This document shows positions 4,566 through 41,142 of a DNA stretch of 64,000 nucleotides, in pieces. A program made the translations under genes and the position numbers. The stretch comes from Chloroflexota bacterium (GTDB taxonomy: Bacteria > Chloroflexota > Limnocylindria > QHBO01): contig JBDTNK010000001.1 of assembly GCA_039933775.1 (NCBI GenBank), positions 5,938-69,937 of the forward strand. Reading direction: 5' to 3'. The notes under the pieces were generated by a model that saw nothing but the letters and a program-made list of their open reading frames with translations, was not told where the DNA came from and did not search any database. Position 1 is the stretch's first letter. Every line of letters begins with the position of its first letter.

Positions 4566-4576
4566 ATGAGCGCCCG

Positions 4577-8609: not shown

Positions 8610-8944
8610 GGGTGGTCGCCATCGCGACCGATCTCATGATGGTGAGCCGCATCGCAGCGGCGGCCGATGTCGCTGCGGTTACGCTGACCCGCCTGAGATC
8701 GCCTCGTGAGCTCGGCCCAGTGGCTGACACCGATCTCGTGATCGTTGATTGGGCGGAGCGGGAGCCGTGGTGGGCCGAATCGCTGGTCGCGTGGCGAGCT
8801 GACGCACAGGTGCCGATCGTCCTCTTCGGGCAGCACACCGACCGCGAGGCGCATAGAGCAGCGCGTGAGGCCGGTCTCGGACCGATGTGGGCCCGATCGC
8901 GCCTCATGCGCGAGCTGCCACGCCTCGTCGCTCCCGCCCGATGA
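8606..8944 (+). CDS. Hypothetical small protein, ATGA-coupled on both sides
   Basis: 112 aa. It is coupled to the upstream hypothetical and to the downstream sulfotransferase, whose ATG at 8941 overlaps the TGA at 8942-8944. Confidence 0.4.
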   Translation: MRVVAIATDLMMVSRIAAAADVAAVTLTRLRSPRELGPVADTDLVIVDWAEREPWWAESLVAWRADAQVPIVLFGQHTDREAHRAAREAGLGPMWARSRLMRELPRLVAPAR

Positions 8945-9861
8945 GCGGCGAACGGCGCCGCCCGGATTTCTTCATTGTCGGCGCGCCGAAATCGGGGACG
9001 ACCGCGATGTACGAGTACCTCAGGGCGCATCCACAGCTCTTCCTGCCTGAGCGCAAGGAGCTTCGGTTTTTCGGCTCCGACCTCGAGGTCCGCGACCGCC
9101 CCCAGCCCAGCCTGGACGCATATCTCGCCTTCTTCGCCGATGGCGGCGAGGCACGGCGGATCGGAACCGCATACGTCTGGTACCTGTATTCGCAGCGCGC
9201 GGCGGCGGAGATCCGCGACTTCGCGCCCAACGCGGACATCATCGCGATGCTGCGCAATCCGATCGAGATGGTGTGGTCCCTCCATTCGGAGCACCTGTTC
9301 AACGGCAACGAGGACATCCGCGACTTCACGGCGGCGCTCGATGCCGAGGCTGACCGTCAGAATGGCCTCCGGATTCCCGCACACGCGCATCTGCCGCAGG
9401 GGCTGCACTACTCGCAGGTCCCGCGCTACGCCGAGCAGCTCGAGCGCTACTTCACCACGTTCGGCCGCGACCGCGTCCACGTCATCCTGTACGACGACTT
9501 CGCGGCCGACGTCCGATCGAGCTATCGGGCCGTCCTGTCATTCCTGGGCGTGGAGCCTGGCTCCTCGCCCCCCGCTTTCGAGGTCATCAACGCCAACAAG
9601 CGCACGCGGAGCGAATGGTTCCGTCACTTCCTGGCTCGTCCGCCCGAGCTGCCGCGCCGGATCATCCGAACCGTTGTTCCGGCCTCGCTGCGGCGCGCCG
9701 CCTACGAGCGCGGCAAGCGGATGAACGTCGCAGCGACGCGTCGCGAGCCTATGCCGTCGGCGACCCGGGAACGGCTCCGGCGCGTCTTCCAGCCCGAGGT
9801 CGAGCGCCTCTCGCTGCTCATCGGTCGTGACCTCAGCGACTGGGTACGGCCGCCTCGGTAG
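8941..9861 (+). CDS. PAPS-dependent sulfotransferase
   Basis: The N-terminal 5'-phosphosulfate-binding loop FFIVGAPKSGTTAM is canonical. There is a 3'-PB-like region MLRNPIEMVWS. Length is about 306 aa. Confidence 0.8.
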   Translation: MSGERRRPDFFIVGAPKSGTTAMYEYLRAHPQLFLPERKELRFFGSDLEVRDRPQPSLDAYLAFFADGGEARRIGTAYVWYLYSQRAAAEIRDFAPNADIIAMLRNPIEMVWSLHSEHLFNGNEDIRDFTAALDAEADRQNGLRIPAHAHLPQGLHYSQVPRYAEQLERYFTTFGRDRVHVILYDDFAADVRSSYRAVLSFLGVEPGSSPPAFEVINANKRTRSEWFRHFLARPPELPRRIIRTVVPASLRRAAYERGKRMNVAATRREPMPSATRERLRRVFQPEVERLSLLIGRDLSDWVRPPR

Positions 9862-10855
9862 CGCCGAGCACCGATTCACATACGTCGAGCAACTGCGCAG
9901 CCGCATCGGCGCCACACAGGCGGATCGTGCAGCCAGCACGCTGCCTGTGGCCGCCGCCGCCAAAGGCGCCTGCGATCTGCGTGGCGTCGACTTCGTCGGT
10001 GACGCGCAGGCTCACACGCGTTTCATCGGGCTTCAGCTCTCGGAGCAGGATCGTGATCTGCGCGCCTTGGGTGCCAGCCAGAAACTCGGCGAACCCGTCA
10101 GCATCGTGCTGCTCGGTTCCGGTCTCCGCCAGCATCTCGGGCAGGAGCACCGAGTACACGATTCGACCATCGGCAGACGCCGCCACGGAGTTGAGCAGCC
10201 GGCCCCAGAGTTGCATCGTCCGGTATGGCAGCTCGCCAAGAATGCGGCGGTGAATGAACGGGAGATCTGCCCCGGCGGCCGCCAGGTCGGCGGCAAGACG
10301 CAGGGTACGCGGCGAGGTCGAGCGGTCGCTGAAGCCGTGGCTGTCACGCACTATCCCCGTCATCAGTGCGGTGGCCAATGCGGGATCGAGGGTGACGCCG
10401 AGGTGGGGGACCAGGTCGGCGATCACCTGGCACGTGGCTGCGGCTGTGGGATCGACGACGTTGATCGACCCGAACCTCGTATTCGTCACGTGGTGGTCGA
10501 TATTGACGATGCGCGCGTCCGCGAACCACGCCGCCCGCTCAAGCGCAATGCTGCCGACCCGCTCGAGCGTGGCCGCGTCGCACACCACTGCCAGGTCGGG
10601 CGGGCCGGACGGCGATGCGACGACGGACCGCATCTCGGACATGTAGTCGTACATCGGGCCTGGGGCGTCGGTGCTCACCACCTCCGCCTGCTTACCGAGG
10701 CTTCGCGCGATGAGCGCCATGGCGACCGCTCCCCCGATCGTGTCGGCGTCGGGGTTCTCGTGGCATAGCGCCGTGACATGGGACGATGCATTGATCGCGG
10801 CGCGCAGCTCCGCGCCGGCAGTGATCGGGTCGAATTGGTTCGTGGGCACGGACAT
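9833..10855 (-). CDS. nrnA: DHH/DHHA1 phosphoesterase, NrnA-like (bifunctional oligoribonuclease / pAp phosphatase)
   Basis: Contains the DHH motif IVNIDHHVTN and the DHHA1 motif GGGHRQRAG. The start was chosen at MSVPTNQF; the track start at 10966 would invade the divergent promoter. Confidence 0.7.
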   Translation of the reverse strand: MSVPTNQFDPITAGAELRAAINASSHVTALCHENPDADTIGGAVAMALIARSLGKQAEVVSTDAPGPMYDYMSEMRSVVASPSGPPDLAVVCDAATLERVGSIALERAAWFADARIVNIDHHVTNTRFGSINVVDPTAAATCQVIADLVPHLGVTLDPALATALMTGIVRDSHGFSDRSTSPRTLRLAADLAAAGADLPFIHRRILGELPYRTMQLWGRLLNSVAASADGRIVYSVLLPEMLAETGTEQHDADGFAEFLAGTQGAQITILLRELKPDETRVSLRVTDEVDATQIAGAFGGGGHRQRAGCTIRLCGADAAAQLLDVCESVLGATEAAVPSR

Positions 10856-11067
10856 CAGGACTCCAACGGAGGGCTCCGCGGCCAGACGGGCGCGGGCCGA
10901 GATTGTAAGCAGACCGCACGCGGAGCGCCCGGACTTCGAACCAAACGCGTCGACTGCGCGCACCACCCGCCGAGCGGAGACGGGGTACTATTGCCGCCGC
11001 CCAACCGGTGAGCGTCCCCACATGCGCGGACGTCGCCCGATGCCATCATTCCACTGGAGATCTCTGC

Positions 11068-12249
11068 ATGTCGATCCCTGTGACCACGTCCGTCCCCCAC
11101 GGCGGCACGCTCATCAACCGCACACTCACCGGTGCGGAGCGCGACTCGGCTCTCAAGCGCGCGGCCGGCCTGCCGCGCGTGACCATCGGCAGCGTCGCCC
11201 TCTCCGACCTGGAACTGATCGGGAACGGCGCCTTCAGCCCGCTGACCGGATTCATGGGCGAGGCCGACTATCTCGGCGTGCGCGACGGCATGCGCCTCGT
11301 GACCGGGCTGCCGTGGTCTATCCCCATCACGCTCGCGGTGGACGGTGCGACCGCGGATACCCTCGAGAATGGCGCGGAAGTCGCGCTGGCGGACGGCGAC
11401 GGTCGCATCGTCGGGATCCTGGAGCTGTCGGAGAAGTATCGCTACGACAAGAGTCAAGAAGCAGCGCAGATCTTCCGCACGACGGAGGAGGCGCACCCCG
11501 CCGTCGCGCGCATCATGGCCGCCGGCGACACCTACCTCGGCGGCAATGTCTGGGTGCTGAACGGTCCGCAGGACCCGCCGTTCGCTGAGTTCCGTCGCAC
11601 CCCAGCCGAGACGCGTGCGATCTTCGCTGAGAACGGCTGGCGCCGTGTCGTTGGCTTCCAGACCCGTAACCCGATCCATCGGGCGCACGAATACCTCACC
11701 AAGGTGGCGCTCGAGACCGTTGACGGACTCATGATCCATCCGCTGGTGGGCGACACGAAGAGCGACGATATTCCGGCCGACGTGCGCATGCGCGCCTACC
11801 AGACCCTGCTGGCGGACTACTACCCGCAGGATCGGACGCTTCTCTCCGTCTATCCTGCGGCGATGCGATATGGCGGGCCGCGAGAAGCGATCTTTCATGC
11901 CATCGCGCGCAAGAACTACGGCTGTACGCACTTCATCGTAGGACGCGACCATGCGGGTGTCGGCAGCTACTACGGAACGTACGACGCGCAACAGATCTTC
12001 GATGAGTTCGACCCAGGCGAGCTCGGGATCACGCCGCTCTTCTTCGAACACACCTTCTGGTGCCACGCCTGCGAGGGGATGGCCAGCTACAAGACCTGTC
12101 CGCATGGCGACGACCAGCACTTGATCCTATCGGGCACGAAGGTGCGCGCGATGCTCTCGAACGGCGAGATGCCCCCGCCCGAGTTCAGCCGGCCACCCGT
12201 CGCGCAGATTCTTATCGAGTCCTACCGCGAGTCCGTCGGCGCCCGCTGA
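11068..12249 (+). CDS. sat: Sulfate adenylyltransferase (ATP sulfurylase)
   Basis: Carries the [11 protein letters not shown] motif, a GRDHAGVG loop and a PUA-like N-terminus. The start was chosen at [15 protein letters not shown] (ATG at 11068). Confidence 0.85.
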
Positions 12250-12282: not shown

Positions 12283-12948
12283 ATGACCGACACCGATACC
12301 GCGCCGCGATCCGGTGGTCCCACCGTCTCGACGACGACCGCGACCACCGCATCGGGCGAAACTATTCACCTTGGCGGTGGCGCGGGCACGCGCCACGACC
12401 GCGAGACGACCGGATTCACGGTCTGGTTCACCGGTCTCTCCGGCTCCGGCAAGAGCACGATCACCCACCTCATCGAAGCGGAACTTCGCCGCCGTGGCCA
12501 CAAGGTCGAGGTGCTCGACGGGGACGTCGTGCGCACCCACCTTTCGAAGGGCCTCGGCTTCAGCAAGGAAGATCGCGACACCAACATCCTTCGCATCGGA
12601 TGGGTCTGCGAAGTCCTGAGCCGGAACGACGTCGTCGCGATCGCGGCGGCGATCAGTCCGTACCGCGACATCCGGGACCAGCTCCGTCGCGACATCGGCC
12701 GCTTCGTCGAGGTCTATGTCGAGGCACCACTCGAGGTGCTCGCCGACCGTGACGTGAAGGGCCTGTACCGCAAGGCGATGGCCGGCGAGATCAAGGGCTT
12801 TACCGGCGTGGACGACCCGTACGAGGCGCCACTCAATCCGGAGGTCGTCTGCCACTCGGACGGCCGCGAAACGCCGGAGGAGAGTGCCGCGAAGGTGATT
12901 GCAAAGCTGGAGGAGCTCGGCTACTCGCAGCCGAACGAGACCCGCTGA
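12283..12948 (+). CDS. cysC: Adenylylsulfate (APS) kinase
   Basis: The P-loop is [12 protein letters not shown], and the rest is an APS-kinase-like body. Its stop overlaps the next gene as TGATG. Confidence 0.85.
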
Positions 12949-14270
12949 TGCGTCCGCGGCGGCGCGTCATCGTCGTCGCTCTCGACGGGCTTGGAATCGA
13001 CCTCTTTCGCGGAGCTCTGGCGCGCGGACACATTCCACATCTCGCAGCGCTGGCCGGACCTGGGGGGCCACGGGCGATTGCGACGCGGCCCCCGGCGAGC
13101 CCCCAGGCCGCGTGGACCACGTTCACGACGGCCTCGAATCCGGGGCGACACGGGATCTTCGGTCTCACGCATCCCGGTCGGCAGCTGCGTATTCGCATCG
13201 CCAGCGCCGACCACGTTCGGATGCCGACATTGTGGGACCGAGCAGCGACCGACGGACTCCGGTCGGTCGTCGTTGGCCTTCCCGGCACGTACCCGGCGCG
13301 CCGAATGTCGGGCTCAATGGTCGCCGGTTACGTCGTTCCCAACCCAGAGCGCCTGTGCTACCCGCGTGCGCTGTCCGCACGCGTCGCTGAGGCAGGGTAT
13401 AGGTCCGATATCGATGTGCGTACGGCGGCGAGCGATCCTGAGCGGTTTGCCGCGGAGCTGCTCACATCTGTCGAGCGCCGAATCGAGGTGATGCGACAAC
13501 TGCTGAAGCACGACCGCTGGTCGCTGGCAGTCCTTGCGTTTACCGAGCTTGATCGATGGGGTCACGCCTGGCGGCGGCGTGTCGCCGCCGGTGATCATGA
13601 CGCCCTGGTGGTCGGCGACTCGATCTTGTCATCGATCGATCGCTTCTTCGGCTTCTTGCGCGAGGCGTATGGAGCCGCCAAATTCCAGGTCCTGTCCGCC
13701 AATGGCATTGCCCCCGTGGACCATCTGCTCAACCTTGATGGATGGCTCAGAGATGCCGGCTACCTTCACCGGGAGGACGGCCAGCTCGGCGGCAGGACTG
13801 TTGCGTTCTCGATGGAAGCCGGCCGAATCTACATCCACGCGACGCGCATGTTCGCCGACGGGAGGCTCGGTGGCGGCTCGGTGTTGCCGTTGATGGACGA
13901 GATCGCTGAAGGACTGACGGCGCTGCGCTCGCCCGACGGCGCCCTCCCGTTACAGGCCGTCGTCCGCCGGCGTGATCTATACGACGGACCTCACGCACGC
14001 GTCGGCCCGCATCTCGTGGCCGTGCCTGCACCGGGGTGGGCGGTTGTCAGCTCTCGGAAGCTTCCCCTGGTCAGCAAAGCTGCGGATTTCGAGGGTGGTC
14101 ACCGACATGACCTGGCGTTCGCCGTCGGCGACGCCGCGGACGATGGCTCACCGGTGACCCTGGAAGACCTCGGCGCGACCGTCCTCGCGGATCTGGCGGT
14201 GTATGACGATGACGTGGATGGCACGGCTCTTCGTGCTGGTGGGGCCAAGGCGCAACGCAACTCACGATGA
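12948..14270 (+). CDS. Alkaline-phosphatase-superfamily protein (type I phosphodiesterase / nucleotide pyrophosphatase-like)
   Basis: The N-terminus VIVVALDGLGIDLF is typical of PF01663-like AlkP-core enzymes. The gene is 440 aa and translationally coupled to cysC. Confidence 0.55.
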   Translation: MRPRRRVIVVALDGLGIDLFRGALARGHIPHLAALAGPGGPRAIATRPPASPQAAWTTFTTASNPGRHGIFGLTHPGRQLRIRIASADHVRMPTLWDRAATDGLRSVVVGLPGTYPARRMSGSMVAGYVVPNPERLCYPRALSARVAEAGYRSDIDVRTAASDPERFAAELLTSVERRIEVMRQLLKHDRWSLAVLAFTELDRWGHAWRRRVAAGDHDALVVGDSILSSIDRFFGFLREAYGAAKFQVLSANGIAPVDHLLNLDGWLRDAGYLHREDGQLGGRTVAFSMEAGRIYIHATRMFADGRLGGGSVLPLMDEIAEGLTALRSPDGALPLQAVVRRRDLYDGPHARVGPHLVAVPAPGWAVVSSRKLPLVSKAADFEGGHRHDLAFAVGDAADDGSPVTLEDLGATVLADLAVYDDDVDGTALRAGGAKAQRNSR

Positions 14271-14422: not shown

Positions 14423-14455
14423 GTGCCTTCGCCCCGAGGGGAGGCCCAGCGTTAC

Positions 14456-15178
14456 ATGGTCACCATCCGACGGCGTACCGTCGCATCGCTCGAAGTGCCA
14501 CGAGCGGTGCAGCCCCGAGCGCAGGCGCGGCCTCCGGCCGCGTTGACGTCTCGTCGAAAGCGAGCTTTCGATCTGATCGCGAGCGTCGCCATATTCGTCA
14601 TCATCTCGCCACTCTGGTTCTTGATCGCGCTCGCGATCAAGCTGAGCTCGCCTGGCCCTGTGCTGTTCCGCCAGGAGCGGATCGGTGTCGGTGGCCAGCC
14701 GTTTACGCTCTACAAGTTCCGCACGATGCACAACGGGGTCAGCGATGAGGTGCATCGGCGTTTCGTTACCGGGATGATTCTCGGCAGCGTCGAATCGACG
14801 GCAATCTCAGCGTATGACGGAGCCTTCAAGCTCGCCCGTGATGCTCGAGTGACGGTGGTTGGGCGCTGGCTGCGGCGGACCTCGCTCGACGAGCTGCCGC
14901 AGCTCCTCAACGTGATCGCGGGGGACATGTCGCTCGTCGGTCCTCGGCCGCCCCTCGCGTACGAGGTTGATCGGTATGAACCATGGCAGCACGAGCGACT
15001 GAGTGTGCTGCCCGGGATCACCGGGCTGTGGCAGGTCTCGGGACGCAACCGCCTCAGCTATCTGGACATGATCCGGCTGGACATTGCCTACGCGAGAGAC
15101 TGGACGTTCCGCCGCGATCTGCTCATTGCGATCAAGACGCCGTGGACGATGTTCGTCGATCGCGGGGGTGCTGCGTGA
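14456..15178 (+). CDS. Undecaprenyl-phosphate sugar-1-phosphate transferase (bacterial sugar transferase family, priming glycosyltransferase)
   Basis: The single N-terminal TM is AFDLIASVAIFVIISPLWFLIALAI. It also has RIGVGGQPFTLYKFRTM and the catalytic motif LDELPQLLNVIAGDMSLVGPRP, typical of WbaP C-terminal/PssY-type enzymes. Confidence 0.85.
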   Translation: MVTIRRRTVASLEVPRAVQPRAQARPPAALTSRRKRAFDLIASVAIFVIISPLWFLIALAIKLSSPGPVLFRQERIGVGGQPFTLYKFRTMHNGVSDEVHRRFVTGMILGSVESTAISAYDGAFKLARDARVTVVGRWLRRTSLDELPQLLNVIAGDMSLVGPRPPLAYEVDRYEPWQHERLSVLPGITGLWQVSGRNRLSYLDMIRLDIAYARDWTFRRDLLIAIKTPWTMFVDRGGAA

Positions 15179-16293
15179 TGGAGAAGCTTGGAATCGGCGT
15201 CATTGGATGCGGGTACTGGGGGCCAAACCTGATCCGCAACTTCGCCCGTCACGACGACGCGCATGTCGTCGCAATCTGCGACATGCAGATCGATCGGGCA
15301 TCGCGCGTCGCAGGCTGGTACGGCGTCTCGGCGGTAACCGACGATCCCGCGATGCTCATCAACAACCCTGAGGTGTCGCTCGTGGTGGTCGCGACGCCTG
15401 CCGGATCGCATTTCGGCCTTGCCAAGGCCGCCCTTGAGGCTGGCAAGCACGTTCTGATCATGAAGCCGATGACGACGCGCACGGACCATGCCGAGGAGCT
15501 GATCGAGCTCGCTCGAGCCCAGGGCGTGTTGCTCGCCGTCGACCACACCTTCGTCTACACGGCCGCTGTTCGGAAGATGCGAGAAATCGTGGTGGCCGGC
15601 GATCTGGGAGACGTCTTCTATCTTGACAGTGTCCGGATCAATCTCGGCGTCTTCCAGTCGGACGTAAACGTCATCTGGGATCTGGGCCCGCACGACATCA
15701 GCATCATCGACTACGTGCTCGGTGGTCGCCTGCCGAGCGAGGTGTCGGCGGTCACCGCGGCGCACGCGGGGAGCCGTCACGAGAACATCGCCTACCTGAC
15801 GATGCGCTACGGACCGAGCGTCCTGGCACACGTGCACGTGAATTGGCTCGCGCCGGCCAAGATCCGCCGAACGATCGTCGGTGGTTCGAAGCAGATGCTG
15901 GTCTACGACGACATGCAACCTTCAGAGAAGCTGCTCGTGTACGACCGAGGTGTGACGATCTCCCCTTGGGAGGATCCCGAGGAAATCTACAACCAGCTGG
16001 TGTCATATCGAACCGGCGATGTCACGGCTCCGCGCCTCGACGACCGTGAGGCGCTCGCGACCGAAGTCGACGAGGTGGTACGCGCGATCCGCGGAGGGCC
16101 GGCGCCTCTGAGCGACGCGGCGCTCGGGCTGCGGACGGTGCAGATCCTCGAAGCTGCTGAGCGGTCGGCACGCGATGGCTCCCGTCCCGTCACATTCGAC
16201 GGCGGTCGCACCCCACCGCTGGCGGCGACGACCGCGTTCGCTGTCGGAGGCGCACCGGTTCACTCACTGCGCGCCCCAGCGACCGGCGACTAG
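15178..16293 (+). CDS. Gfo/Idh/MocA-family NAD(P)-dependent sugar oxidoreductase
   Basis: The N-terminus has the Rossmann motif KLGIGVIGCGYWGPNLIRNF. The start overlaps the upstream stop as ATGA. The gene sits in a glycan locus, like WbpB/WlbA-type nucleotide-sugar dehydrogenases. Confidence 0.75.
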   Translation: MEKLGIGVIGCGYWGPNLIRNFARHDDAHVVAICDMQIDRASRVAGWYGVSAVTDDPAMLINNPEVSLVVVATPAGSHFGLAKAALEAGKHVLIMKPMTTRTDHAEELIELARAQGVLLAVDHTFVYTAAVRKMREIVVAGDLGDVFYLDSVRINLGVFQSDVNVIWDLGPHDISIIDYVLGGRLPSEVSAVTAAHAGSRHENIAYLTMRYGPSVLAHVHVNWLAPAKIRRTIVGGSKQMLVYDDMQPSEKLLVYDRGVTISPWEDPEEIYNQLVSYRTGDVTAPRLDDREALATEVDEVVRAIRGGPAPLSDAALGLRTVQILEAAERSARDGSRPVTFDGGRTPPLAATTAFAVGGAPVHSLRAPATGD

Positions 16294-16418
16294 CGGCCGT
16301 TGCGCCCGACGGCGCACGATGGGTCGGGCCTGAATGAGCAAGGCTCGGCCGATGGGTGCTGCGCCGGGCGGTTTCGACAGCGGTCGACTAGGATACGCCA
16401 ACAAACCTGAGGTATGCG

Positions 16419-17558
16419 ATGGAGCTGCGGTCTCTGCTGCGCCTGATCCTCCGCCATTGGTGGGTCATCATCCCGATTTTCATCATCACCGTCGGCTCGA
16501 CGGTCGTGCTGACGTTGAGCCAGCGCCCGATCTACCAGAGCACGACAACGCTGCTCGTCACACCGTCAACCGATTTGAGCGCCACGCAGCAGGAGATCAT
16601 CAACTCACTTCAGCTCCTGAGCCGCCAGAGTGAGATCGCAGCCACCTATGCGCTCGTGGCCTCGAGCGCCACTATTCGCCAAGCGGTCACCGACGAGCTC
16701 GGCATCACGCCGATTGACCGCCGCAACCAGCAGCTCGACCTGGACGCGCGGCTCCTTCCCGGGAGCACGGTCATCACGATCGATGTGCGGTCCACCGATG
16801 CGCAGCTCGCGACGGCCTACGCCTCTGCGGTCGGAGACGAGCTCAAAGACTTCGTCAGCAACCTAACCGAGACGTTCGATCTGTTGACCCTCGATCCGGC
16901 GAGTGTTCCCGGCGCTTCGATCGCGCCGAATGTGCCGCTCAATATCGCGCTCGGCGTCGCAGGCGGACTGGCGCTTGCCGTTGGGGCCGCGGTCGTACTA
17001 CACCTGCTCTCGCCCGCCCCGCGGCTTCGCCCTCGAATGGACATCATCGATCCGGAGACCTGGGCGTACAACTTCCCATTCTTTCTGTTCCGCCTTCGTC
17101 AGGAAATGAGCCGGACACGGCGTGTCGGAACGGCGACGTCGCTGGCGATCATCGACGTGAACCACCGGGAGTCGCTCGACTCCGCCTCGCCACATGGCCG
17201 GGCTGATGCCCTCGTGCGGGTCTCCATCCTGTTCGACACCCACCTGCGGCTCGAAGACACTGCAGCACGGCTCGATGACATGACATTCGCGCTGCTCCTG
17301 CCGGACACCACCGAACCAGATGCGGTCCGGATGGTCGAGGCGCTTCGAGCGCGGATCGCGAGCGCGGTGCTCAGCATCAGCGAGCACAAGGAGCCGATGC
17401 GTGCGAATCCTGCGGCGGGGGTTGTCTCGTATGCGGGCGACGCGATGAGCGAGCAGGAGCTGCTCGATCGTGCCCGCAAGGCGCTGCAGCGCGCCGAAAC
17501 GTCTCCCAGCGGCCGAACCGAGACGTTCACCACCGCGAATGCCGGACGCCCGGCCTGA
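16419..17558 (+). CDS. Wzz-like polysaccharide co-polymerase (chain-length determinant) with a C-terminal degenerate GGDEF-like domain
   Basis: The N-terminal TM WWVIIPIFIITVGSTVVLTL is followed by a Wzz-like periplasmic region and a second TM GVAGGLALAVGAAVVLHLL. The cytoplasmic tail carries GGDEF-fold landmarks: DDMTFALLLPDT in place of GGDEFAVLLP, a possible I-site RLED four residues upstream, and a terminal ELLDRARKALQRAE. Confidence 0.6.
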   Translation: MELRSLLRLILRHWWVIIPIFIITVGSTVVLTLSQRPIYQSTTTLLVTPSTDLSATQQEIINSLQLLSRQSEIAATYALVASSATIRQAVTDELGITPIDRRNQQLDLDARLLPGSTVITIDVRSTDAQLATAYASAVGDELKDFVSNLTETFDLLTLDPASVPGASIAPNVPLNIALGVAGGLALAVGAAVVLHLLSPAPRLRPRMDIIDPETWAYNFPFFLFRLRQEMSRTRRVGTATSLAIIDVNHRESLDSASPHGRADALVRVSILFDTHLRLEDTAARLDDMTFALLLPDTTEPDAVRMVEALRARIASAVLSISEHKEPMRANPAAGVVSYAGDAMSEQELLDRARKALQRAETSPSGRTETFTTANAGRPA

Positions 17559-19122: not shown

Positions 19123-20633
19123 GCTCCACGTCCGTCGGCGCCGAGGCGCCGCTCGCCACGACGCTGGCACTCTTTGCGCGCCTCGAGGAGCTGGGCGTTC
19201 GTTACTGCCATTGGAAGAGCACGCCGTCGCTGGGGACCGCCCTGGCCGGACGGACTGACCTCGACCTGCTCGTCGAGCGGGAAGATGCCGATCGCTTCGC
19301 GGAGGCGGCTCGCGGCCTCGGCTTCAAGCCGTTCATCTCACATGCGAGCCGACGCTTTCCGGCAGTCGAGGACCTTCTCGGCTACGACGAGGAGACCGGG
19401 CGCCTCATCCACCTGCACGTGTATTACCAGCTCATCCTGGGTGAGCACTACATCAAGAACCACCGCCTGCCATTCGAGCGGGCGCTCATCGGAAGCAGTG
19501 TGCTGCGCGATCGCGTTCGGGTGCCGCCACCCGAACTCGAAGTGGCAATCCTGGCGTATCGCACGCTGCTGAAGTATCGGGATACCGATGCACTGAAGGA
19601 TCAGCTGGGCCTCGGGCGCCGTGGCGGGATTCCCCGCGAGGCGCTCGCCGAGCTGCGAGCGCTGATCGCAAGCACCACGCCGGATGCTGTCGGTCGGGCC
19701 ATCGAGGCCGAGCTCCCCGGCCTTGCGCCTGGTCCGGTCGTCGGTCTGATCGAGCTCGTGGGAGACAACGCGCGCGACGCCGTGGCGCTCCTTCACCTGC
19801 GCCGCGAAGCACGCACCGCGCTGCGCGCGTATGAACGAGTGCCGGCAGGTACGGCCTGGTGGCGGTACGTGCGCGCTCGAGCATCGGGCGTGTGGCCCTT
19901 CCGCATCGTCACGCGCAGTGCCGGTCGGCGTGCCGTAAAGCGCAAGTCGCCGCGCGCAGGTGGCCTCGTCGTCGCGGTCATCGGGTCCGATGGGGCCGGT
20001 AAGTCGACCGCGATAGAGCACATCGTCGACTGGCTTGGCTGGCGCCTGAACGTATCGGTGCAGTACCTGGGCTCTTCGCAGCCATCGCGGACGACGGCCA
20101 GCGTGAAGCGGGTCGCCAAGCTCGGCCGCGCGCTTGCCCGGCGCCTCCCAGGCGGTGCCGATGAAGCGCCGTCGGGCGGCGTGGTCGGGGTGCTCCTAGC
20201 GCTGCGGCACCTCGCCGACGCCCGCGACCGAGAGCGCCGCGCCCGGGTTGCCCACAGGCTCGCATCGCAGGGCGTTCTCGTCCTGCTGGATCGGTACCCT
20301 CTGCCGGGCGTGCTCGTTGCTGGTCGGCCGCTGGACGGTCCGCGAATCCGGCTCACGCTCGCTGCCGGCTCCAGACTCCTGCGCATGCTGGCCGAACGGG
20401 AGGAGCGCATCTACCGACGGCTGCCGCGGCCGGATCATCTGCTCGTGCTGCGGGTCTCACCTGAAGTCGCGCGCGTACGACGGCCTGACCATGTGGCCAA
20501 AGACCTCGCGGCACGGACGGCAGCGCTCGATCGCCTCGAGGGAATCACGATCCCGATGACGATGATCGACGCCGATCAGCCGCTGGAGCGGGTCCAGGCC
20601 GACGTGCGGGCGGCGCTCTGGCGCCTCCTGTGA
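19119..20633 (+). CDS. Two-domain protein: N-terminal minimal nucleotidyltransferase-like region plus C-terminal thymidylate-kinase-like P-loop domain
   Basis: The N-terminus has GTALAGRTDLDLLVERED, an hG[GS]...D-h-D-hhV NTase-like motif. The C-terminus has the P-loop VIGSDGAGKST and a downstream LLDRYP (DRY/H) motif, as in dTMP kinases. The start is ATGA-coupled to the flippase. Confidence 0.45.
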   Translation: MSSTSVGAEAPLATTLALFARLEELGVRYCHWKSTPSLGTALAGRTDLDLLVEREDADRFAEAARGLGFKPFISHASRRFPAVEDLLGYDEETGRLIHLHVYYQLILGEHYIKNHRLPFERALIGSSVLRDRVRVPPPELEVAILAYRTLLKYRDTDALKDQLGLGRRGGIPREALAELRALIASTTPDAVGRAIEAELPGLAPGPVVGLIELVGDNARDAVALLHLRREARTALRAYERVPAGTAWWRYVRARASGVWPFRIVTRSAGRRAVKRKSPRAGGLVVAVIGSDGAGKSTAIEHIVDWLGWRLNVSVQYLGSSQPSRTTASVKRVAKLGRALARRLPGGADEAPSGGVVGVLLALRHLADARDRERRARVAHRLASQGVLVLLDRYPLPGVLVAGRPLDGPRIRLTLAAGSRLLRMLAEREERIYRRLPRPDHLLVLRVSPEVARVRRPDHVAKDLAARTAALDRLEGITIPMTMIDADQPLERVQADVRAALWRLL

Positions 20634-22405
20634 GGACGATCGAGTTCGCTGGCGCCGTCGGCAGCGGCAAGAGCACACTTGCGCCGGAGCTTGTCCGGCT
20701 GCTGCGGGAGGCGGGAATTGACGCGGTCGGGCAAACGGACGCGCTCGCCGGACTCGTGAGCCGCCGGGTCGGGCTCGCCGTCGATGCGCCCCACGGTGCT
20801 GCTTTCGCCGCAACCCATCCTCGTCTCATGCTCCTCGTCGCCCGGGTGTTGGCGCGCGCCGCGACCGATCGATCACATCGCCGCCGCATCGCGGGTCTCG
20901 TACTGCGGCTTGGTGCGCGGCGGCAGTTCCTGGAGTCCACGCTCGCGCCCGACAGGACCGTCGTGATCGACGAGGGTTTCGTGCAGCGCGCCGTCAACGT
21001 CTTCGCCTGGGCCCCTGGACCGCTGCCGGTGCGCGACCTAGCGCGCTACTTCAGACTGGCCCCCATCGGGGACGTGGTCGTGATGGTCCAGGTTGATGGC
21101 CGTGTCGCCCGAGGGCGCGCGCGAGCTCGAGGGCTGCCGCAACGGGTCGCAGCGAAGCCAGTTGAAGAGGCCGAGCGATTCTTGGCAAGAGCGGAGCAGG
21201 TGGTTGATGCGGCCGGCCGAGTGCTCCAGTCGCTCGGCGTGCCGACGATCGTGGTGAACAATGACGGTACGCGCGAGGGGGCGGTCGACGCGCTGCGCGG
21301 ACACCTGCCGCAGCTGGCGGGCGCAGCGCAGCCGCCGCGCATGAAGTTTGGCCCGCTCGCATTGTCCCGCCCGCGCCGGCGGGGCCGGGCGGCCGTCACT
21401 CCAACGGGACTCGAGGCCGCGATGGACGCGCTCGGGATTGGTACCTGGCGGCTGCTGCGTCCGCTTGGCCGGGCCACCGGCCGCAGCGGGTCTGCGCTCG
21501 TCGAGACGCCCGCCGGGCCGCTCGTGCTCAAGCGCTATAAGGCCAGCGTGCCGATCGATCAGGTACGCGTCGAGCACGAGATTCTCCGCGAGCTCGAGGC
21601 GCTTCAGTTTCCGGCACCCCGGCTCCGAGCGAGCTCGGACGGCACAACGATCATCGATGCCAGCGGGGCGATGTTCGCCGCGTTCGGCTACCTCGACGGC
21701 TATCGACGCTCAGACGACGTGCTCCGGCCGGGGTGGTTGCAGCCGGCCACGGCGCGACTCCACGGTTCGGCGCTTGGCGCGCTGCACGCTGCGCTCGCGG
21801 GCTTCGTCCCCGAAACAACGAGCCCGCACGGCTTGGACCGCAACGCGCCGGGCCGCCGAGCTCGCGATCTGCAGTGGCACGAGGACCTCCTCGATGAGGT
21901 CGAGCGCAGTCCACGCGCACCTCGCCTTCGGGAGGAGCTCGCCGAGCTGCGCCACGTCCTCCCCGAGAGCGACGCGCGGGTGTCGGCCGCGGAGCTGTCG
22001 GCAGGAGTGGTGCATGGCGACTTCGGGCCATACAACGTTCTTATCCGGGATGGCGCGCCGCTCTTCATCGTCGACTACGAGCTTGCGCGACTGGACTGGC
22101 GCGTCGTGGATCTGGCAGCGGCACTCCCGCGATACCTCGGACGCCGGCGCGGCCGCGACGCGGAGCGACGCCTGAGTCGATTCCTGGATGGGTATCGGTC
22201 CAAGGTGGGCCTTTTGCCGCAGGAGCTGCGAGCGCTGCCGGCGGTGTTGGCCTTCCTTAGCCTGCGCCGGGCTGCGGTTCTGCTGGGCCGCTGGATCGAT
22301 CAGCCTGGAGACGCAGCGCCCTGGGAGGTCATCGAAAAACTGATGCTCGCGCGCACCATCGCTGCAGGTGATCACGTAATCGCACGCGTGGCGCGCACAT
22401 TCTGA
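20630..22405 (+). CDS. Two-domain protein: N-terminal P-loop NTPase plus C-terminal aminoglycoside/choline-kinase-like (APH) phosphotransferase
   Basis: The N-terminus has the P-loop FAGAVGSGKSTLA. The C-terminus has the Brenner/APH catalytic motif VVHGDFGPYNVLI followed by FIVDYE. A GTG start at 20630 overlaps the upstream stop as GTGA. Confidence 0.5.
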   Translation: MRTIEFAGAVGSGKSTLAPELVRLLREAGIDAVGQTDALAGLVSRRVGLAVDAPHGAAFAATHPRLMLLVARVLARAATDRSHRRRIAGLVLRLGARRQFLESTLAPDRTVVIDEGFVQRAVNVFAWAPGPLPVRDLARYFRLAPIGDVVVMVQVDGRVARGRARARGLPQRVAAKPVEEAERFLARAEQVVDAAGRVLQSLGVPTIVVNNDGTREGAVDALRGHLPQLAGAAQPPRMKFGPLALSRPRRRGRAAVTPTGLEAAMDALGIGTWRLLRPLGRATGRSGSALVETPAGPLVLKRYKASVPIDQVRVEHEILRELEALQFPAPRLRASSDGTTIIDASGAMFAAFGYLDGYRRSDDVLRPGWLQPATARLHGSALGALHAALAGFVPETTSPHGLDRNAPGRRARDLQWHEDLLDEVERSPRAPRLREELAELRHVLPESDARVSAAELSAGVVHGDFGPYNVLIRDGAPLFIVDYELARLDWRVVDLAAALPRYLGRRRGRDAERRLSRFLDGYRSKVGLLPQELRALPAVLAFLSLRRAAVLLGRWIDQPGDAAPWEVIEKLMLARTIAAGDHVIARVARTF

Positions 22406-22483: not shown

Positions 22484-24739
22484 GTGCCCGCCGTGCCGAA
22501 AATCTTGAAGGTCGTCGCTGTTCTGGCGGTGACGTTCGCGCTCATTGCCCCGGGCCTCGTGGTGGCCAAGAACGACAAGGCGACCGCGCCGCAGCAGGCG
22601 TTTGTCCGATTGTTGCGTCACATCGAGGTGGCTGAGTTCGGGATCGCGCATCCTGCCGGGCTGGCGTATGTCCCGGCCACGCGCGCGCTGCTCGTCATCG
22701 ACGCGTCCGGCGCGGCGAGCCATCTGGTTGGCGTCAGCGAGGACGACCTTGGGCCCGTTGCGCTGCCTGCCGTGCCAGATTCGGCCGCGGCGGTGACGTT
22801 CGACGCGGCCACGAGCGCCCTCGTCGTCATCGACGGCAGCGCCGTCGTGAACGAGGTCGCGGCACCAAACGGCCGCCCATCTGGTCCTCCGACGCAGGGC
22901 CGCGCCGTCGCTCCCCAGACCGTGACCGGCACGGCAATAAGTGGAGGTGAGCTGCTCGTGGGCGACGGCAGCGGCTTCGTCGCGCTTGCGCCGGACGCTT
23001 CGCGCGGGTCGAGGCGTGTCGACATGAGCCGCCTGGGAGAGCCGCTTGTTGGCATCGCCGTCGATCCGGAGAGCGGACATCTCTACACCTTGGGCAGCAG
23101 GTCGCGGACGCTCTTCGAGCTCGACACGACCGGAACCGTGCTGTCCACGCGCGATCTCTCGACGCTCGGGCTGAGCGAGCCCCAGGCCATTGTGGCCGCG
23201 CCCAGCGCCGACACGACGGACGATGCGACGGCGATCAGCCTATTCGTCGCCGATGCCGGCCCAAGCGGCGGCACGGGGACGGTTGTCGAGCTGGGTCTAC
23301 AGGCACCGCAGATTTCCCCACAGCTGGCCCTCGCGGCGGCGAGCAACGCGACCCTCGTCCGCACGATCGACACATCCGGATGGCCAAGCCCGGATCCTTC
23401 GGGCATCGCCTACAACACGGCGAGTAATCGGCTCATGGTCGTCGACGGTGAGATCGACGAGATGCAGATCTATTCCGGGTTCAATGGCTACGAGTCGACG
23501 CTCACCGGTACGCTCCTGCGGACGTTCGACACGCTCGGCTGGCGGTCCACCGGACCGTGTGGTGGCCAATCAGGTCTCCAGACCTGCCTGAACAAGGAAC
23601 CGGTCGGCGTCGCGATCAACCCGACGAATGGCCACGTCTTCGTTTCGAACGACTCGAAGAAGACGGTCTGGGAGGTCACTCCCGGTGGTGACGGCGTCGT
23701 AGGCGGCAGCGATGACGTGCTGCGCTCGTTCCGGCTCGATACTCTCGGCGTCGGCGATCCCGAAGGCCTCGGGATCGGCGGCGGACGGCTCTGGGTCGCC
23801 GACGGCACGAACCGCGAGATCTGGTCGCTCGCCCCGGGTAACGACGGGCTCTTCGGGACGCCCGACGACCCCATCGCCCACTTCGACACTGATTCGCTCG
23901 GTGAGCCGGATCCGGAGGGCGTCGACTACGATTCCGCGACCGGACACCTGTGGGTCGTGAGTAACGACACCCAGCAGACACTGCTCGAGGTCACGACTTC
24001 GGGTTCGCCGGTGCAGGTCGTGGACATCTCGGCGTCTCAGGCACGCTCGCCAGGCGGCGTGGCGGTTGGACCAGCGAGCGGCGGTTCGGGTCGCAGCGTC
24101 TACGTCGCGGATCGCGGTGTCGACAACAATGACAATCCGAACGAAAATGACGGACGCATCTACGAGCTGGCGATCGGCTCCGCGCCAGATCCTACGCCGA
24201 CACCGGTGCCCACCCCAACGCCCGTCCCCACCGCCACGCCGATTCCGACGGCGACGCCGAGCGCGACACCATCGGCGACACCGGTTCCGCCGGGCACCAA
24301 CCTGGTGGTCAACGGCGACTTCGAGGCCGACGTCAATGGGGACGGCCCGGACAACTGGTCGACGCACGAGCATTTCACTCGGTCGACCACGGCCGCTCAC
24401 GCAGGGACGTACGGTGGCTTGCACAGCGCGACAGATGGGAGCCGATACAACATCCAGCAGGATGTGCCGGTCGTGGGTGGCAACGCATACGACTTCAGCG
24501 GCTGGGTCAACATCCCGAACGCCAATGGCACGACGCGGTTTATCCTGAAGGTCCAATGGCGTAGCAATCGGAATCTTGGCGTGACTGAGATCGCGAAGTT
24601 CACGACCGCGACCAGCGGGTGGGTCCAGGTCAATGATTCGGTAACGGCGCCTGCGGGTGCCACGGCAGCTCGACTGATCATGACGCTGCGGAACTTCAAC
24701 GGGACCGTCTGGGTCGACGATTTTCGCCTGCAGCGCTGA
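22484..24739 (+). CDS. Secreted protein with a beta-propeller-like repeat region, a Pro/Thr linker and a C-terminal CBM4/9-like carbohydrate-binding module
   Basis: A signal-peptide-like N-terminus (KILKVVAVLAVTFALIAPGLVVA) leads into repeated DPSG/DPEG...Y/W blades. A PT-rich linker PDPTPTPVPTPTPVPTATPIPTATPSATP follows. The C-terminal domain begins NGDFEADVNG...W, as in CBM_4_9 modules. Confidence 0.55.
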   Translation: MPAVPKILKVVAVLAVTFALIAPGLVVAKNDKATAPQQAFVRLLRHIEVAEFGIAHPAGLAYVPATRALLVIDASGAASHLVGVSEDDLGPVALPAVPDSAAAVTFDAATSALVVIDGSAVVNEVAAPNGRPSGPPTQGRAVAPQTVTGTAISGGELLVGDGSGFVALAPDASRGSRRVDMSRLGEPLVGIAVDPESGHLYTLGSRSRTLFELDTTGTVLSTRDLSTLGLSEPQAIVAAPSADTTDDATAISLFVADAGPSGGTGTVVELGLQAPQISPQLALAAASNATLVRTIDTSGWPSPDPSGIAYNTASNRLMVVDGEIDEMQIYSGFNGYESTLTGTLLRTFDTLGWRSTGPCGGQSGLQTCLNKEPVGVAINPTNGHVFVSNDSKKTVWEVTPGGDGVVGGSDDVLRSFRLDTLGVGDPEGLGIGGGRLWVADGTNREIWSLAPGNDGLFGTPDDPIAHFDTDSLGEPDPEGVDYDSATGHLWVVSNDTQQTLLEVTTSGSPVQVVDISASQARSPGGVAVGPASGGSGRSVYVADRGVDNNDNPNENDGRIYELAIGSAPDPTPTPVPTPTPVPTATPIPTATPSATPSATPVPPGTNLVVNGDFEADVNGDGPDNWSTHEHFTRSTTAAHAGTYGGLHSATDGSRYNIQQDVPVVGGNAYDFSGWVNIPNANGTTRFILKVQWRSNRNLGVTEIAKFTTATSGWVQVNDSVTAPAGATAARLIMTLRNFNGTVWVDDFRLQR

Positions 24740-24760: not shown

Positions 24761-26221
24761 ATGACCTCGCGGGCTGAACCGGTCAACCGGCCGCCGATCG
24801 CTGCCCTTGCACTGGGCCGGCCGTTCGACGCGCGCTGGAGCGGTGTCGCGACCGTGGTCGTTGGCATCCTGGCTGGACTGGCGATCGCCTATTTGATCGC
24901 AACCGGCAATGGCCAGATGGCCATCGGAGCCGCCCTCGCGGTGCCCATCGCCGCGCTGGTGGTCGGCGATCCATTCATCGGGGTGATCCTCTGGGTCCTC
25001 ACCGTCCCGTATTTCAGCGGCCTTTCCGCCGAGACCGGGCCGGTGATCTGGGCCGTCCATCGGTTCGGCATCCCTGCGGTGATCGTGCTGACCGCGGTTC
25101 ACAGCCGCCTGGGATGGCGTCGCTGGGGCCTCCGCGTCGGGTGGGTCGATCTGTTTCTTGCGGCATTCATCGCGATCGGGCTAGTGAACATCGTGTTCCT
25201 GGCACCAAACACACAGCGCATGATCGCGTCGTTCTACGACAAGATGATTGTCCCGATCGCGCTCTTCTGGCTGATCCGAGCGATGGCACCTCGCCGCCGG
25301 GAGCTGCGCATGCTGGTCGGGGCGGGGCTGATTACGCTGGTGACCCAGTCGACCATCGGCTTGCTGTCCTGGGTGGCCCCGAGCGTGCTTCCCTCAGCTT
25401 GGCTCGGGCGCGCCGGAGAGCGCACGACCGGCACGCTCGGCGGCCCTGCTCCGTTCACGATCACGCTCGTCCTTTTCGGGATCATCGCGGTCCACGCAGC
25501 GGCCCAGTCGCCCTCGGTGCGGCATCGGGCGGTCATGATCGGTGCCACCCTGCTCGCGGCGGTTGCGATCTTCCTGTCGCTCTCTCGTGGGAGCTGGTTA
25601 GGCGCGGGCATCGCCTTCACCGGGGTCGCATTGATCCACCGCCGTCTCGTGGGGCTCATGGCAGTCATCGCAGTCTTGACGATCGTAGCGCTGAGCGCCG
25701 GACCGCTCGCCGAGCAGGTGGCCTTCGCCCAGGAGCGGATAGGTGACGACGACACGGTGGAGTCGCGAATTGTCACGAACGATGCATCGCTGCGCATGAT
25801 CGAGGCACAGCCGATCATCGGGTTTGGCTTCGGAAACTTCGAGCGATACGACGAGTCGTTCAAACGGCGCGTGGGCGACATCCCGCTGAAGTTGGGTGGG
25901 AGTTCCCACAATACCTACCTGGCAATGCTCGCGGAGCAGGGCATTCCCGCCACCACGCTCTACCTCGCCGTGCCGGTCGTCCTCCTCGCGACGACGTTCC
26001 TTCGCTGGCGGGACCTGCCGCCTTCTGGCCTGGGCAGCCGCGTGTTCGTGGCAGCCCTGTGGCTCGCGATCATCGACATGTTCGTGGTCCAGAATTTCCT
26101 CGAGATGATCCACTCATCGTACTGGGCGACTTCCCTCTGGTGGCTGACGCTCGGCCTCATCGCATCGGTTCTCGACCGCGCCGACGAGCGACGGCGGTTC
26201 GATACCGCGGTGGACCGATGA
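24761..26221 (+). CDS. O-antigen ligase/polymerase-family membrane protein (Wzy-like)
   Basis: About 10-12 TM helices. It carries the Wzy_C signature region FLSLSRGSWLGAGIAFTGV with a large loop. The stop overlaps the next gene as ATGA. Confidence 0.7.
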   Translation: MTSRAEPVNRPPIAALALGRPFDARWSGVATVVVGILAGLAIAYLIATGNGQMAIGAALAVPIAALVVGDPFIGVILWVLTVPYFSGLSAETGPVIWAVHRFGIPAVIVLTAVHSRLGWRRWGLRVGWVDLFLAAFIAIGLVNIVFLAPNTQRMIASFYDKMIVPIALFWLIRAMAPRRRELRMLVGAGLITLVTQSTIGLLSWVAPSVLPSAWLGRAGERTTGTLGGPAPFTITLVLFGIIAVHAAAQSPSVRHRAVMIGATLLAAVAIFLSLSRGSWLGAGIAFTGVALIHRRLVGLMAVIAVLTIVALSAGPLAEQVAFAQERIGDDDTVESRIVTNDASLRMIEAQPIIGFGFGNFERYDESFKRRVGDIPLKLGGSSHNTYLAMLAEQGIPATTLYLAVPVVLLATTFLRWRDLPPSGLGSRVFVAALWLAIIDMFVVQNFLEMIHSSYWATSLWWLTLGLIASVLDRADERRRFDTAVDR

Positions 26222-29092: not shown

Positions 29093-29096
29093 ACCG

Positions 29097-41005: not shown

Positions 41006-41142
41006 GGGATGGTGCATTCGGGGCCGCGACTATACCCGACCCCCGATTGGCGCTTCCCGCCGCCCGGGGTATCATGCGCCGGTGGCCCAGCCCGAGCGGG
41101 CAACTGAGGCCGCCGGAGTGTGTCCCCTCCAAAGCAAGGTCC

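Follow-up and report, generated by a model that had tools for sequence, protein, structure and literature searches.

Background

Among the synthase-dependent exopolysaccharide (EPS) systems, BcsA, Alg44, PelD and PgaCD are under post-translational control by the second messenger cyclic di-GMP (c-di-GMP). In Pseudomonas aeruginosa, PelD binds c-di-GMP through a degenerate GGDEF domain, using an RxxD motif and a downstream arginine, which activates polymer production (PMC12564702; PMC12802240). YdaK of Bacillus subtilis, which has both a primary RxxD and a secondary RxxR inhibitory site (I-site) and a degenerate SDERI motif, is needed for EPS synthesis, and I-site mutants abolish EPS production (PMC5422440). 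A 2025 mBio paper described c-di-GMP control as well characterised for synthase-dependent pathways and the post-translational regulation of Wzx/Wzy pathways as "incompletely understood"; the Wzx/Wzy cases that it cites involve tyrosine phosphorylation (PMC12802240). Here, we describe a gene at 16419-17558 in a stretch of 64,000 nucleotides from a Chloroflexota bacterium (contig JBDTNK010000001.1 of assembly GCA_039933775.1; the whole stretch is called the window), whose product joins a Wzz-type polysaccharide co-polymerase (PCP) to a degenerate GGDEF domain and is referred to as Wzz-GGDEF.

Combining profile searches, structure prediction and a survey of related genomes, we confirmed this fusion, which lies far beyond chance. 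From its sequence, Wzz-GGDEF is probably a c-di-GMP receptor PCP with the dead GGDEF domain as its cytoplasmic receptor, and in our best reading this receptor would regulate Wzx/Wzy-dependent assembly post-translationally.

Results

The Wzz-GGDEF gene and its annotation

The N-terminus of the protein (MELRS) is kept in homologues, and the codon-position GC of the gene is that of a real gene (GC3 0.80, in a window of about 68% GC). The protein corresponds exactly to NCBI MEO8509626.1, recorded as 'MAG: diguanylate cyclase [Chloroflexota bacterium]' (MAG, metagenome-assembled genome). The gene and the elements of its product are as follows:

16409..16412, + strand: Shine-Dalgarno-like GAGG, 7 nt 5' of the ATG, read from the sequence
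16419..17558, + strand: Wzz(PCP)-GGDEF gene, complete open reading frame of 379 aa plus stop
16458..16520, + strand: transmembrane helix 1, residues 14-34, WWVIIPIFIITVGSTVVLTLS (AlphaFold2 helix; hydrophobic translation)
16521..16931, + strand: extracytoplasmic PCP alpha/beta domain, residues 35-171 (Pfam Wzz, model of residues 1-204, Foldseek)
16932..17009, + strand: transmembrane helix 2, residues 172-197, Gly-rich and GNVR-like, VPLNIALGVAGGLALAVGAAVVLHLL (AlphaFold2 helix; hydrophobic)
17010..17045, + strand: basic juxtamembrane linker, residues 198-209, SPAPRLRPRMDI (low-confidence model region)
17046..17528, + strand: cytoplasmic degenerate GGDEF domain, residues 210-370 (Pfam, TIGR00254, PleD alignment, model)
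17091..17123, + strand: conserved alpha-1 helix RLRQEMSRTRR, residues 225-235, with the candidate secondary I-site R232-x-x-R235 (translation, PleD alignment)
17247..17258, + strand: primary I-site motif R277-L-E-D280 (RxxD), aligned to PleD R359-A-I-D362
17274..17288, + strand: degenerate active site (A-site) D286-D-M-T-F290, aligned to PleD G368-G-E-E-F372
17328..17357, + strand: alpha-3 helix segment R304-I313 with R310 and R312 (family conservation)

The cytoplasmic domain has a GGDEF fold with a dead A-site and a primary I-site

In Pfam, the cytoplasmic domain (residues 210-362) matches GGDEF PF00990 at E 2.5e-14, its 53.8 bits being well over the cutoff of 23.8, and in NCBIfam it matches the GGDEF model TIGR00254 with 53 bits against a cutoff of 37.4; an HMMER alignment matches the domain to PleD (1w25) at E 3.5e-10. 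A full-length AlphaFold2 model was built from 36 homologues (mean predicted local distance difference test score, pLDDT, 84.7), in which the GGDEF domain is modelled confidently (pLDDT about 85-93). Compared with the Protein Data Bank (PDB), the neighbours of the full model are GGDEF domains, with the best E-value for PleD (1.7e-12); the isolated GGDEF domain 3ign aligns to it with a TM-score of 0.90 (root-mean-square deviation 1.8 Å, 164 columns), and the degenerate GGDEF domain of FimX likewise superposes at a TM-score of 0.90. The first-pass annotation, made from the letters alone, had placed a GGDEF-fold domain in this position and had named a missing GGDEF fold or a disordered tail as what would speak against it. 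Profile search and structure prediction found neither, and the C-terminal tail is confirmed, in the model, as folded into a GGDEF domain and not disordered.

In PleD, G368-G-E-E-F372 forms the A-site, N335 contacts the guanine, K442 contacts the phosphate and E370 is the metal-binding or catalytic residue; D327 and D344 likewise count among the ligand- and metal-binding positions of an active cyclase. The primary I-site is R359xxD362, of which the pocket is completed by R390, and R313 constitutes a secondary I-site that cross-links neighbouring GGDEF domains. When Wzz-GGDEF is aligned to PleD with HMMER, DDMTF (preceded by L285) takes the place of GGEEF, with M288 at the position of E370, and N335 and K442 are replaced by D254 and E360, respectively. 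Judged by these residues, the A-site is catalytically dead, as had been supposed from LDDMTF. The RLED motif, which had been noticed just upstream, falls exactly on the I-site position of PleD and is separated from DDMTF by five residues, as in PleD. R232 is aligned with PleD R313, and R232-x-x-R235 resembles the secondary RxxR I-site motif that YdaK carries (PMC5422440). With a dead A-site and an RxxD motif five residues upstream, Wzz-GGDEF would fit, on sequence criteria, the class of degenerate GGDEF I-site receptors, to which PelD, PopA, YdaK and PssE belong.

The fusion is a conserved family that retains the I-site and not the A-site

A search of about 5.8 billion proteins yielded about 69 cluster representatives with the Wzz plus GGDEF architecture (42-86% identity), of which the named ones belong to Chloroflexota or Candidatus Limnocylindria. 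When a profile was run against 1.84 billion 50%-identity representatives, 401 matched at E <= 1e-30, many of them end to end. Family counts were made over 154 full-length members, and 164 columns were ranked by conservation in a non-redundant set of 95 sequences with less than 60% identity within the GGDEF domain. In a species-level set, with one genome per species (GTDB), 43 loci and 39 full proteins were recovered; these loci stem from Limnocylindria (41-85% identity) and from Anaerolineae including Promineifilaceae and Caldilineaceae (29-36%), with a few bins labelled otherwise. The survey of homologous fusions that the first-pass annotation had proposed thus gave more than 150 representatives and 39 species-level Chloroflexota MAGs, and the Wzz-GGDEF fusion is a conserved family. 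An assembly or gene-fusion artefact is ruled out by the presence of the full-length fusion in all of these.

An intact GG[DE]EF motif occurs in 0 of the 154 members and in 0 of the 39 species-level proteins, the equivalent of the metal-binding Asp is D in 39/154 and the equivalent of N335 is N in 14/154. The A-site columns rank 60-148 out of 164 in conservation, those of DDMTF 60-120. The I-site, on the other hand, has its R in 139/154 members and its D in 144/154, with E279 between them in 135/154, and RxED is kept in 37 of the 39 species-level proteins, down to 29% overall identity. On the alpha-1 helix R232 is found in 153/154 members and R235 in 131/154. The top polar columns of the non-redundant set are R232 (0.99), E229 (0.97), R225 (0.95), D280 (0.89), R277 (0.86), E279 (0.80) and R235 (0.77), compared with a median column conservation of 0.35 for the domain. 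Since the I-site columns rank at the top and the A-site columns are unconstrained, it is the I-site elements, and not catalytic function, that selection maintains.

The family members are named 'diguanylate cyclase' or 'diguanylate cyclase (GGDEF)-like protein' in NCBI and JGI. These product names, together with the Pfam and NCBIfam GGDEF matches, would speak for an active, unorthodox diguanylate cyclase making c-di-GMP locally at the polysaccharide machine. With DDMTF in place of GGEEF, a motif that is hypervariable in the family and intact in none of its members, and with the residues that would bind metal (Asp), guanine (Asn) and phosphate (Lys) not conserved, we rejected this candidate on the A-site residues and the family-wide degeneracy and consider it extremely improbable. 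Because the active site is degenerate in all family members, the public cyclase name is probably a systematic misannotation.

The same conservation pattern bears on two other explanations. The dead GGDEF domain could be a pseudo-enzyme scaffold that binds no nucleotide and offers an oligomerisation or docking surface for the initiating phosphoglycosyl transferase (PGT), Wzx, Wzy or other cytoplasmic partners. Such a role would agree with the wholly degenerate A-site, with the charged stripe R225/E229/R232 as a potential protein-protein interface and with the extra C-terminal interaction modules, such as E3_binding, of some members; it would be analogous to the bacterial tyrosine (BY) pseudokinase EcpK, which acts with the PCP EpsV in Myxococcus, pseudokinase partners of PCPs being documented (PMC12802240). 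We nevertheless regard a scaffold as unlikely, as it leaves unexplained why, over deep divergence, precisely the canonically placed RxxD and the counterpart of PleD R313 stay fixed while the other surface drifts. Alternatively, the domain could be a receptor for another ligand (GTP, (p)ppGpp, cGAMP or another cyclic dinucleotide) or could dock to a specific active cyclase for local signalling. PleD has been solved with c-di-GMP as well as (p)ppGpp bound (9g85, 9g86), I-site-dependent contacts between diguanylate cyclases and receptors have been cited (PMC5422440), and the third nearly invariant residue, E279 of RxED, lies outside the canonical motif. The A-site, however, no longer has its GTP-binding residues, N335 having become D, K442 E and GG DD; an RxxD motif accompanied by a secondary Arg is the recognised mark of c-di-GMP binding, and there is no positive sign of another ligand, which makes this second alternative quite improbable.

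The reading of Wzz-GGDEF as a c-di-GMP receptor has itself to be weighed against several observations. The position of PleD R390 is occupied by A308, so that the Arg is missing there, and conservation of the candidate substitutes nearby on the same helix, R310 and R312, reaches only about 61% (R in 94/154 each; most of the distant loci have R or K at position 312). R312 lies 32 residues past D280, which we take to be the spacing of PelD R402 after D370. The R or the D of RxxD is lost in about 10% of the family. The RLRQEM-type alpha-1 helix is also present in an ordinary active REC-GGDEF protein (L043), because of which part of the alpha-1 conservation may be structural. All carriers of Wzz-GGDEF are uncultured MAGs. 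Finally, the 64-kb window contains no other GGDEF gene and no diguanylate cyclase. At one related locus, in a Limnocylindrales MAG (L029), a canonical GAF-GGDEF cyclase is encoded at 1-1059, about 9 kb 5' of the Wzz-GGDEF gene, with all of its catalytic signatures intact (DIDYFKRLND, GHATGD, RAED at the I-site, GGEEF and YAAKRSGR). It is a candidate cognate cyclase, and because it is encoded there the lineage can be taken to make c-di-GMP.

Some members of the family depart from the common architecture. P0099 and P0106 have an extra C-terminal E3_binding (peripheral subunit-binding) domain, and P0032 and P0096 have an extra 230-380 C-terminal residues without a Pfam match. A bin labelled Actinomycetota (L040) encodes two Wzz-GGDEF paralogues, at 1370-2758 and 4384-5589, about 1.6 kb apart. 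At an Anaerolineae locus (L025), a multi-transmembrane protein with another degenerate GGDEF domain is encoded at 8147-9172, directly 5' of the Wzz-GGDEF gene.

The N-terminal module is that of a PCP

The N-terminal part of the protein matches Wzz PF02706 with 35.4 bits against a cutoff of 25.5 (Pfam, residues 2-94). The best PCP model in NCBIfam is the CpsC-type TIGR01006, with 44.7 bits, far below its cutoff of 296. GNVR PF13807 is matched weakly, with 11.6 bits against a cutoff of 27.7, and reaches 36 bits in the homologue P0087. Compared with PDB entries by sequence, the N-module had no significant match, and PCPs were recognised by fold search only: a separate model of residues 1-204 (pLDDT 83.9), compared with the PDB by Foldseek, matches PCPs only, namely KpsE (8tsw, E 8.4e-8) and Wzc (7nhr, query-normalised TM-score up to 0.69).

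W14 and W15 in transmembrane helix 1 are invariant across the family. The ectodomain, which is short (about 135 aa) and resembles that of CpsC and other PCP-2b proteins, closes with a Pro-rich segment, P167..P170-N171-x-P173, just ahead of transmembrane helix 2; P170, N171 and G179 are invariant and P167, P173 and G189 nearly so. Both transmembrane helices are bordered by Arg-rich segments (MELRSLLRLILRH and SPAPRLRPR), in keeping with an N-in/C-in topology that places the GGDEF domain in the cytoplasm. The juxtamembrane linker, with pLDDT below 50 at residues 201-206 of the AlphaFold2 model, is probably flexible.

By profile, two-transmembrane topology, base fold and co-encoding with Wzx and Wzy, the protein is a member of the PCP class, and its putative role would be the modulation of polymer chain length or export. 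The two-transmembrane Wzz/PCP identity assigned in the first-pass annotation is thereby upheld by the Pfam profile and by the fold. Its likening to Wzz holds as to the PCP class and does not hold for the ectodomain, which by its length is nearer to monoderm PCP-2b proteins (CpsC-like) than to Wzz or Wzc.

A GGDEF domain in the place of a BY-kinase

Some of the top matches of the profile search cover the PCP module only. Two of these, P0224 and P0213, combine the PCP module with a MinD/ParA-type P-loop domain (AAA_31, CbiA, MipZ) and contain the kinase motifs Walker A GPGEGKST, Walker A' VDADLRR and Walker B LLDTPA as well as C-terminal Tyr clusters (SYYYKYY, HRYHKYY); by these motifs they are bona fide PCP-BY-kinases. 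P0224, of which the gene adjoins GT4 (glycosyltransferase family 4) and Wzy genes, is 35% identical to Wzz-GGDEF across the N-terminal 175 residues (E 2e-31). The earlier statement that the GGDEF domain occupies the position at which PCP-2a proteins have a BY-kinase is thus borne out by a sister N-module fused to such a kinase.

Using the P0224 and P0213 kinase domains as queries, tblastn detected no BY-kinase homologue in the window or in the 43 loci, which rules out a BY-kinase partner hidden in the cluster. The P-loop protein at 19128-20633 was considered and rejected as a BY-kinase, as it is without a Pfam match and has only a non-significant thymidylate kinase match (E 0.31). Given the shared N-module and the lack of a BY-kinase in the clusters, the GGDEF domain occupies, in structure as in genomic setting, the niche that is otherwise a BY-kinase's. 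Two further proteins with the same N-terminal module, P0163 and P0208, have a LysM domain about 140 residues past transmembrane helix 2 and no kinase or GGDEF domain; LysM is normally extracytoplasmic, which makes their topology puzzling.

The gene lies in a conserved cluster for a predicted sulfated polysaccharide

The Wzz-GGDEF gene is situated within a cluster of about 36 kb, followed by further polysaccharide-related genes. Its surroundings comprise:

8887-9861, + strand: sulfotransferase
9833-10966, - strand: DHH/DHHA1 phosphoesterase, candidate 3'-phosphoadenosine 5'-phosphate (PAP) phosphatase
11008-12249: ATP sulfurylase
12283-12948: adenosine 5'-phosphosulfate (APS) kinase
12948-14270: type I phosphodiesterase
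14423..15178, + strand: Bac_transf initiating PGT (Pfam E 8.7e-62), syntenic in most related loci
about 15178..16293, + strand: Gfo/Idh/MocA sugar oxidoreductase (Pfam), directly 5' of Wzz-GGDEF
17539 (candidate ATG)..19122, + strand: Wzx-type flippase (Pfam Polysacc_synt, E 7.8e-31)
19128-20633, + strand: conserved 501-aa P-loop protein with Walker A GSDGAGKST
20630-22405, + strand: protein with N-terminal P-loop and APH-family kinase
22484-24739, + strand: 751-aa protein with NHL repeats and CBM_4_9, between the APH kinase gene and Wzy
24761..26221, + strand: Wzy-type polymerase (Wzy_C, Pfam E 5.5e-19), syntenic
26059-32712: region of seven sulfotransferase-like genes
26059-27183, ~27180-28169, 28091-29092 and 29079-30113, + strand: four of these
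30101-31219, 31023-31916 and 31909-32712, - strand: the other three
32833-36376: three GT4 glycosyltransferases
past 36 kb: UDP-sugar dehydrogenases, CWB2/pectate-lyase-like protein, one more sulfotransferase, epimerase
37819-40074, + strand: the CWB2/pectate-lyase-like protein just named, 751 aa, in which CWB2 (cell-wall binding) is repeated three times and the pectate-lyase likeness is weak
40064-41017, - strand: the one more sulfotransferase-like gene just named

If Wzx starts at its candidate ATG (17539), it shares the last 20 nt of the Wzz-GGDEF gene; Wzx is found directly 3' of Wzz-GGDEF in nearly all loci. The Gfo/Idh/MocA partner is 58-83% identical and adjacent in most Limnocylindria loci. 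Most of the 43 loci share the core gene order PGT-Gfo-[Wzz-GGDEF]-Wzx and have Wzy and several sulfotransferase genes close to it; the sulfated-polysaccharide cluster is conserved across Limnocylindria and parts of Anaerolineae. Nine sulfotransferase-like genes and its own genes for the synthesis of 3'-phosphoadenosine 5'-phosphosulfate (PAPS) are present in the cluster (8887-45000). This gene content implies, as far as can be judged from sequence, that the cluster makes a heavily sulfated EPS of the Wzx/Wzy type in Chloroflexota. No outer membrane polysaccharide export (OPX, Wza) gene was found among the genes scanned, and the CWB2 protein points to a wall of the monoderm type and possibly to a lyase that processes the polymer. 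The P-loop protein and the APH kinase form a pair that is syntenic with Wzz-GGDEF in most loci, for which phosphorylation of a sugar or of the polymer is one possibility. Homologues of the NHL/CBM_4_9 protein recur in many related loci.

Discussion

How Wzz-GGDEF would act as a c-di-GMP receptor

If Wzz-GGDEF is a c-di-GMP receptor, separate cyclases would make the c-di-GMP, which in intercalated form would bind the primary I-site R277/D280, with R312 or R310 possibly completing the pocket. In PleD and WspR, intercalated c-di-GMP bridges GGDEF domains. The ligand may likewise touch the secondary Arg stripe R225/E229/R232/R235 of a neighbouring PCP protomer. In an oligomer, the form in which PCPs function, a bridge of this kind could lock a cytoplasmic ring or release it. 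The state of this ring would be relayed via transmembrane helix 2 to the PCP ectodomain and to the Wzy, Wzx and PGT partners, so that polymerisation or export, as an on/off switch or through chain length, would follow the c-di-GMP level. The c-di-GMP input would in this manner functionally replace the phosphorylation cycle of the BY-kinase PCPs.

A bolder version of this mechanism, which we put forward tentatively and with considerable doubt, is that in this Chloroflexota clade the Tyr-autophosphorylation switch of Wzx/Wzy assembly was replaced by c-di-GMP, with intercalated dimers bridging the I-site of one protomer to R232/R235 of its neighbour and thus assembling or locking a GGDEF ring, much as phosphorylation governs the assembly and disassembly of the BY-kinase ring of Wzc or CapAB.

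Novelty and significance

Full-text literature searches turned up neither a Wzz/PCP-GGDEF fusion nor a PCP that binds c-di-GMP or is acted on by it, in agreement with the earlier remark that no characterised example was known. The closest matches (Pseudomonas stutzeri EPS273-A/EPS273-O, Burkholderia cenocepacia Bcam1331 and Phormidesmis) were set aside as separate genes or unrelated. Wzz-GGDEF would thus bring a known receptor module to a known machine component, in a combination and predicted role not yet described. If the bolder version of the mechanism is true, this would be the first direct post-translational c-di-GMP input to a Wzx/Wzy pathway, a very widespread type of pathway. The sulfated polysaccharide under its control would be that of a bacterium outside the cyanobacteria, which the abstract of the synechan paper describes as 'uniquely' making sulfated EPS among bacteria (PMC8205485). 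More generally, the findings suggest that a second messenger directly switches sulfated polysaccharide assembly in Chloroflexota, and the sulfated polysaccharide of this conserved cluster is of biotechnological interest. The same PCP module is joined to a BY-kinase in some proteins and, in others, to a dead GGDEF domain in which both I-site elements persist. This constitutes a natural experiment, by which direct action of a second messenger on a co-polymerase becomes testable with one purified domain and two point mutants.

Comparison with known systems

With the PCP-2a proteins (Wzc and, among the sister proteins, P0224 and P0213), Wzz-GGDEF shares a two-transmembrane PCP module followed by a regulatory cytoplasmic domain and an occurrence in Wzy-type clusters; it differs in having neither a P-loop BY-kinase nor a Tyr cluster, and its ectodomain is without the long helical barrel of Wzc. 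The PCP-2b proteins of Firmicutes (CpsC, CapA, EpsA) are similar in their short ectodomain, in providing the best NCBIfam PCP match (TIGR01006) and in the monoderm-looking context. Their short tail, however, activates a separately encoded BY-kinase (CpsD, CapB), whereas the tail of Wzz-GGDEF is a full GGDEF domain.

By sequence and by structure, that domain is matched best by PleD, WspR and DgcR, with which the positions of the primary RxxD and of the secondary PleD R313 align. These are active enzymes in which the I-site serves product inhibition; in Wzz-GGDEF, where a catalytic site is lacking, there is nothing to inhibit, and its domain would function through the I-site only.

PelD, to which the first-pass annotation had compared the protein, is likewise an inner-membrane EPS-machine protein with a degenerate GGDEF domain, and the analogy holds for the mechanism and not for family membership. 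PelD has four transmembrane helices and a GAF domain, is encoded in the pelA-G operon and serves a synthase-dependent pathway; no GAF domain is detected by Pfam in Wzz-GGDEF, which therefore lacks the architecture of a PelD orthologue, and PelD is absent from the top 50 structural matches of the Wzz-GGDEF model.

Also among the closest known systems are YdaK of B. subtilis and PssE of Listeria monocytogenes, in which a membrane anchor is likewise combined with a cytoplasmic degenerate GGDEF domain (PMC5422440). They share with Wzz-GGDEF a primary RxxD motif five residues upstream of the dead motif, an RxxR-type Arg pair on the first helix and a gene inside an EPS biosynthesis operon of a monoderm-type bacterium. 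No orthology to Wzz-GGDEF is detectable beyond the GGDEF domain, and YdaK, with four transmembrane helices and without a PCP module, belongs to a synthase-type pathway (GT2, YdaM). What sets Wzz-GGDEF apart from YdaK and PssE is that its anchor is itself a core component of the Wzx/Wzy machinery, the PCP.

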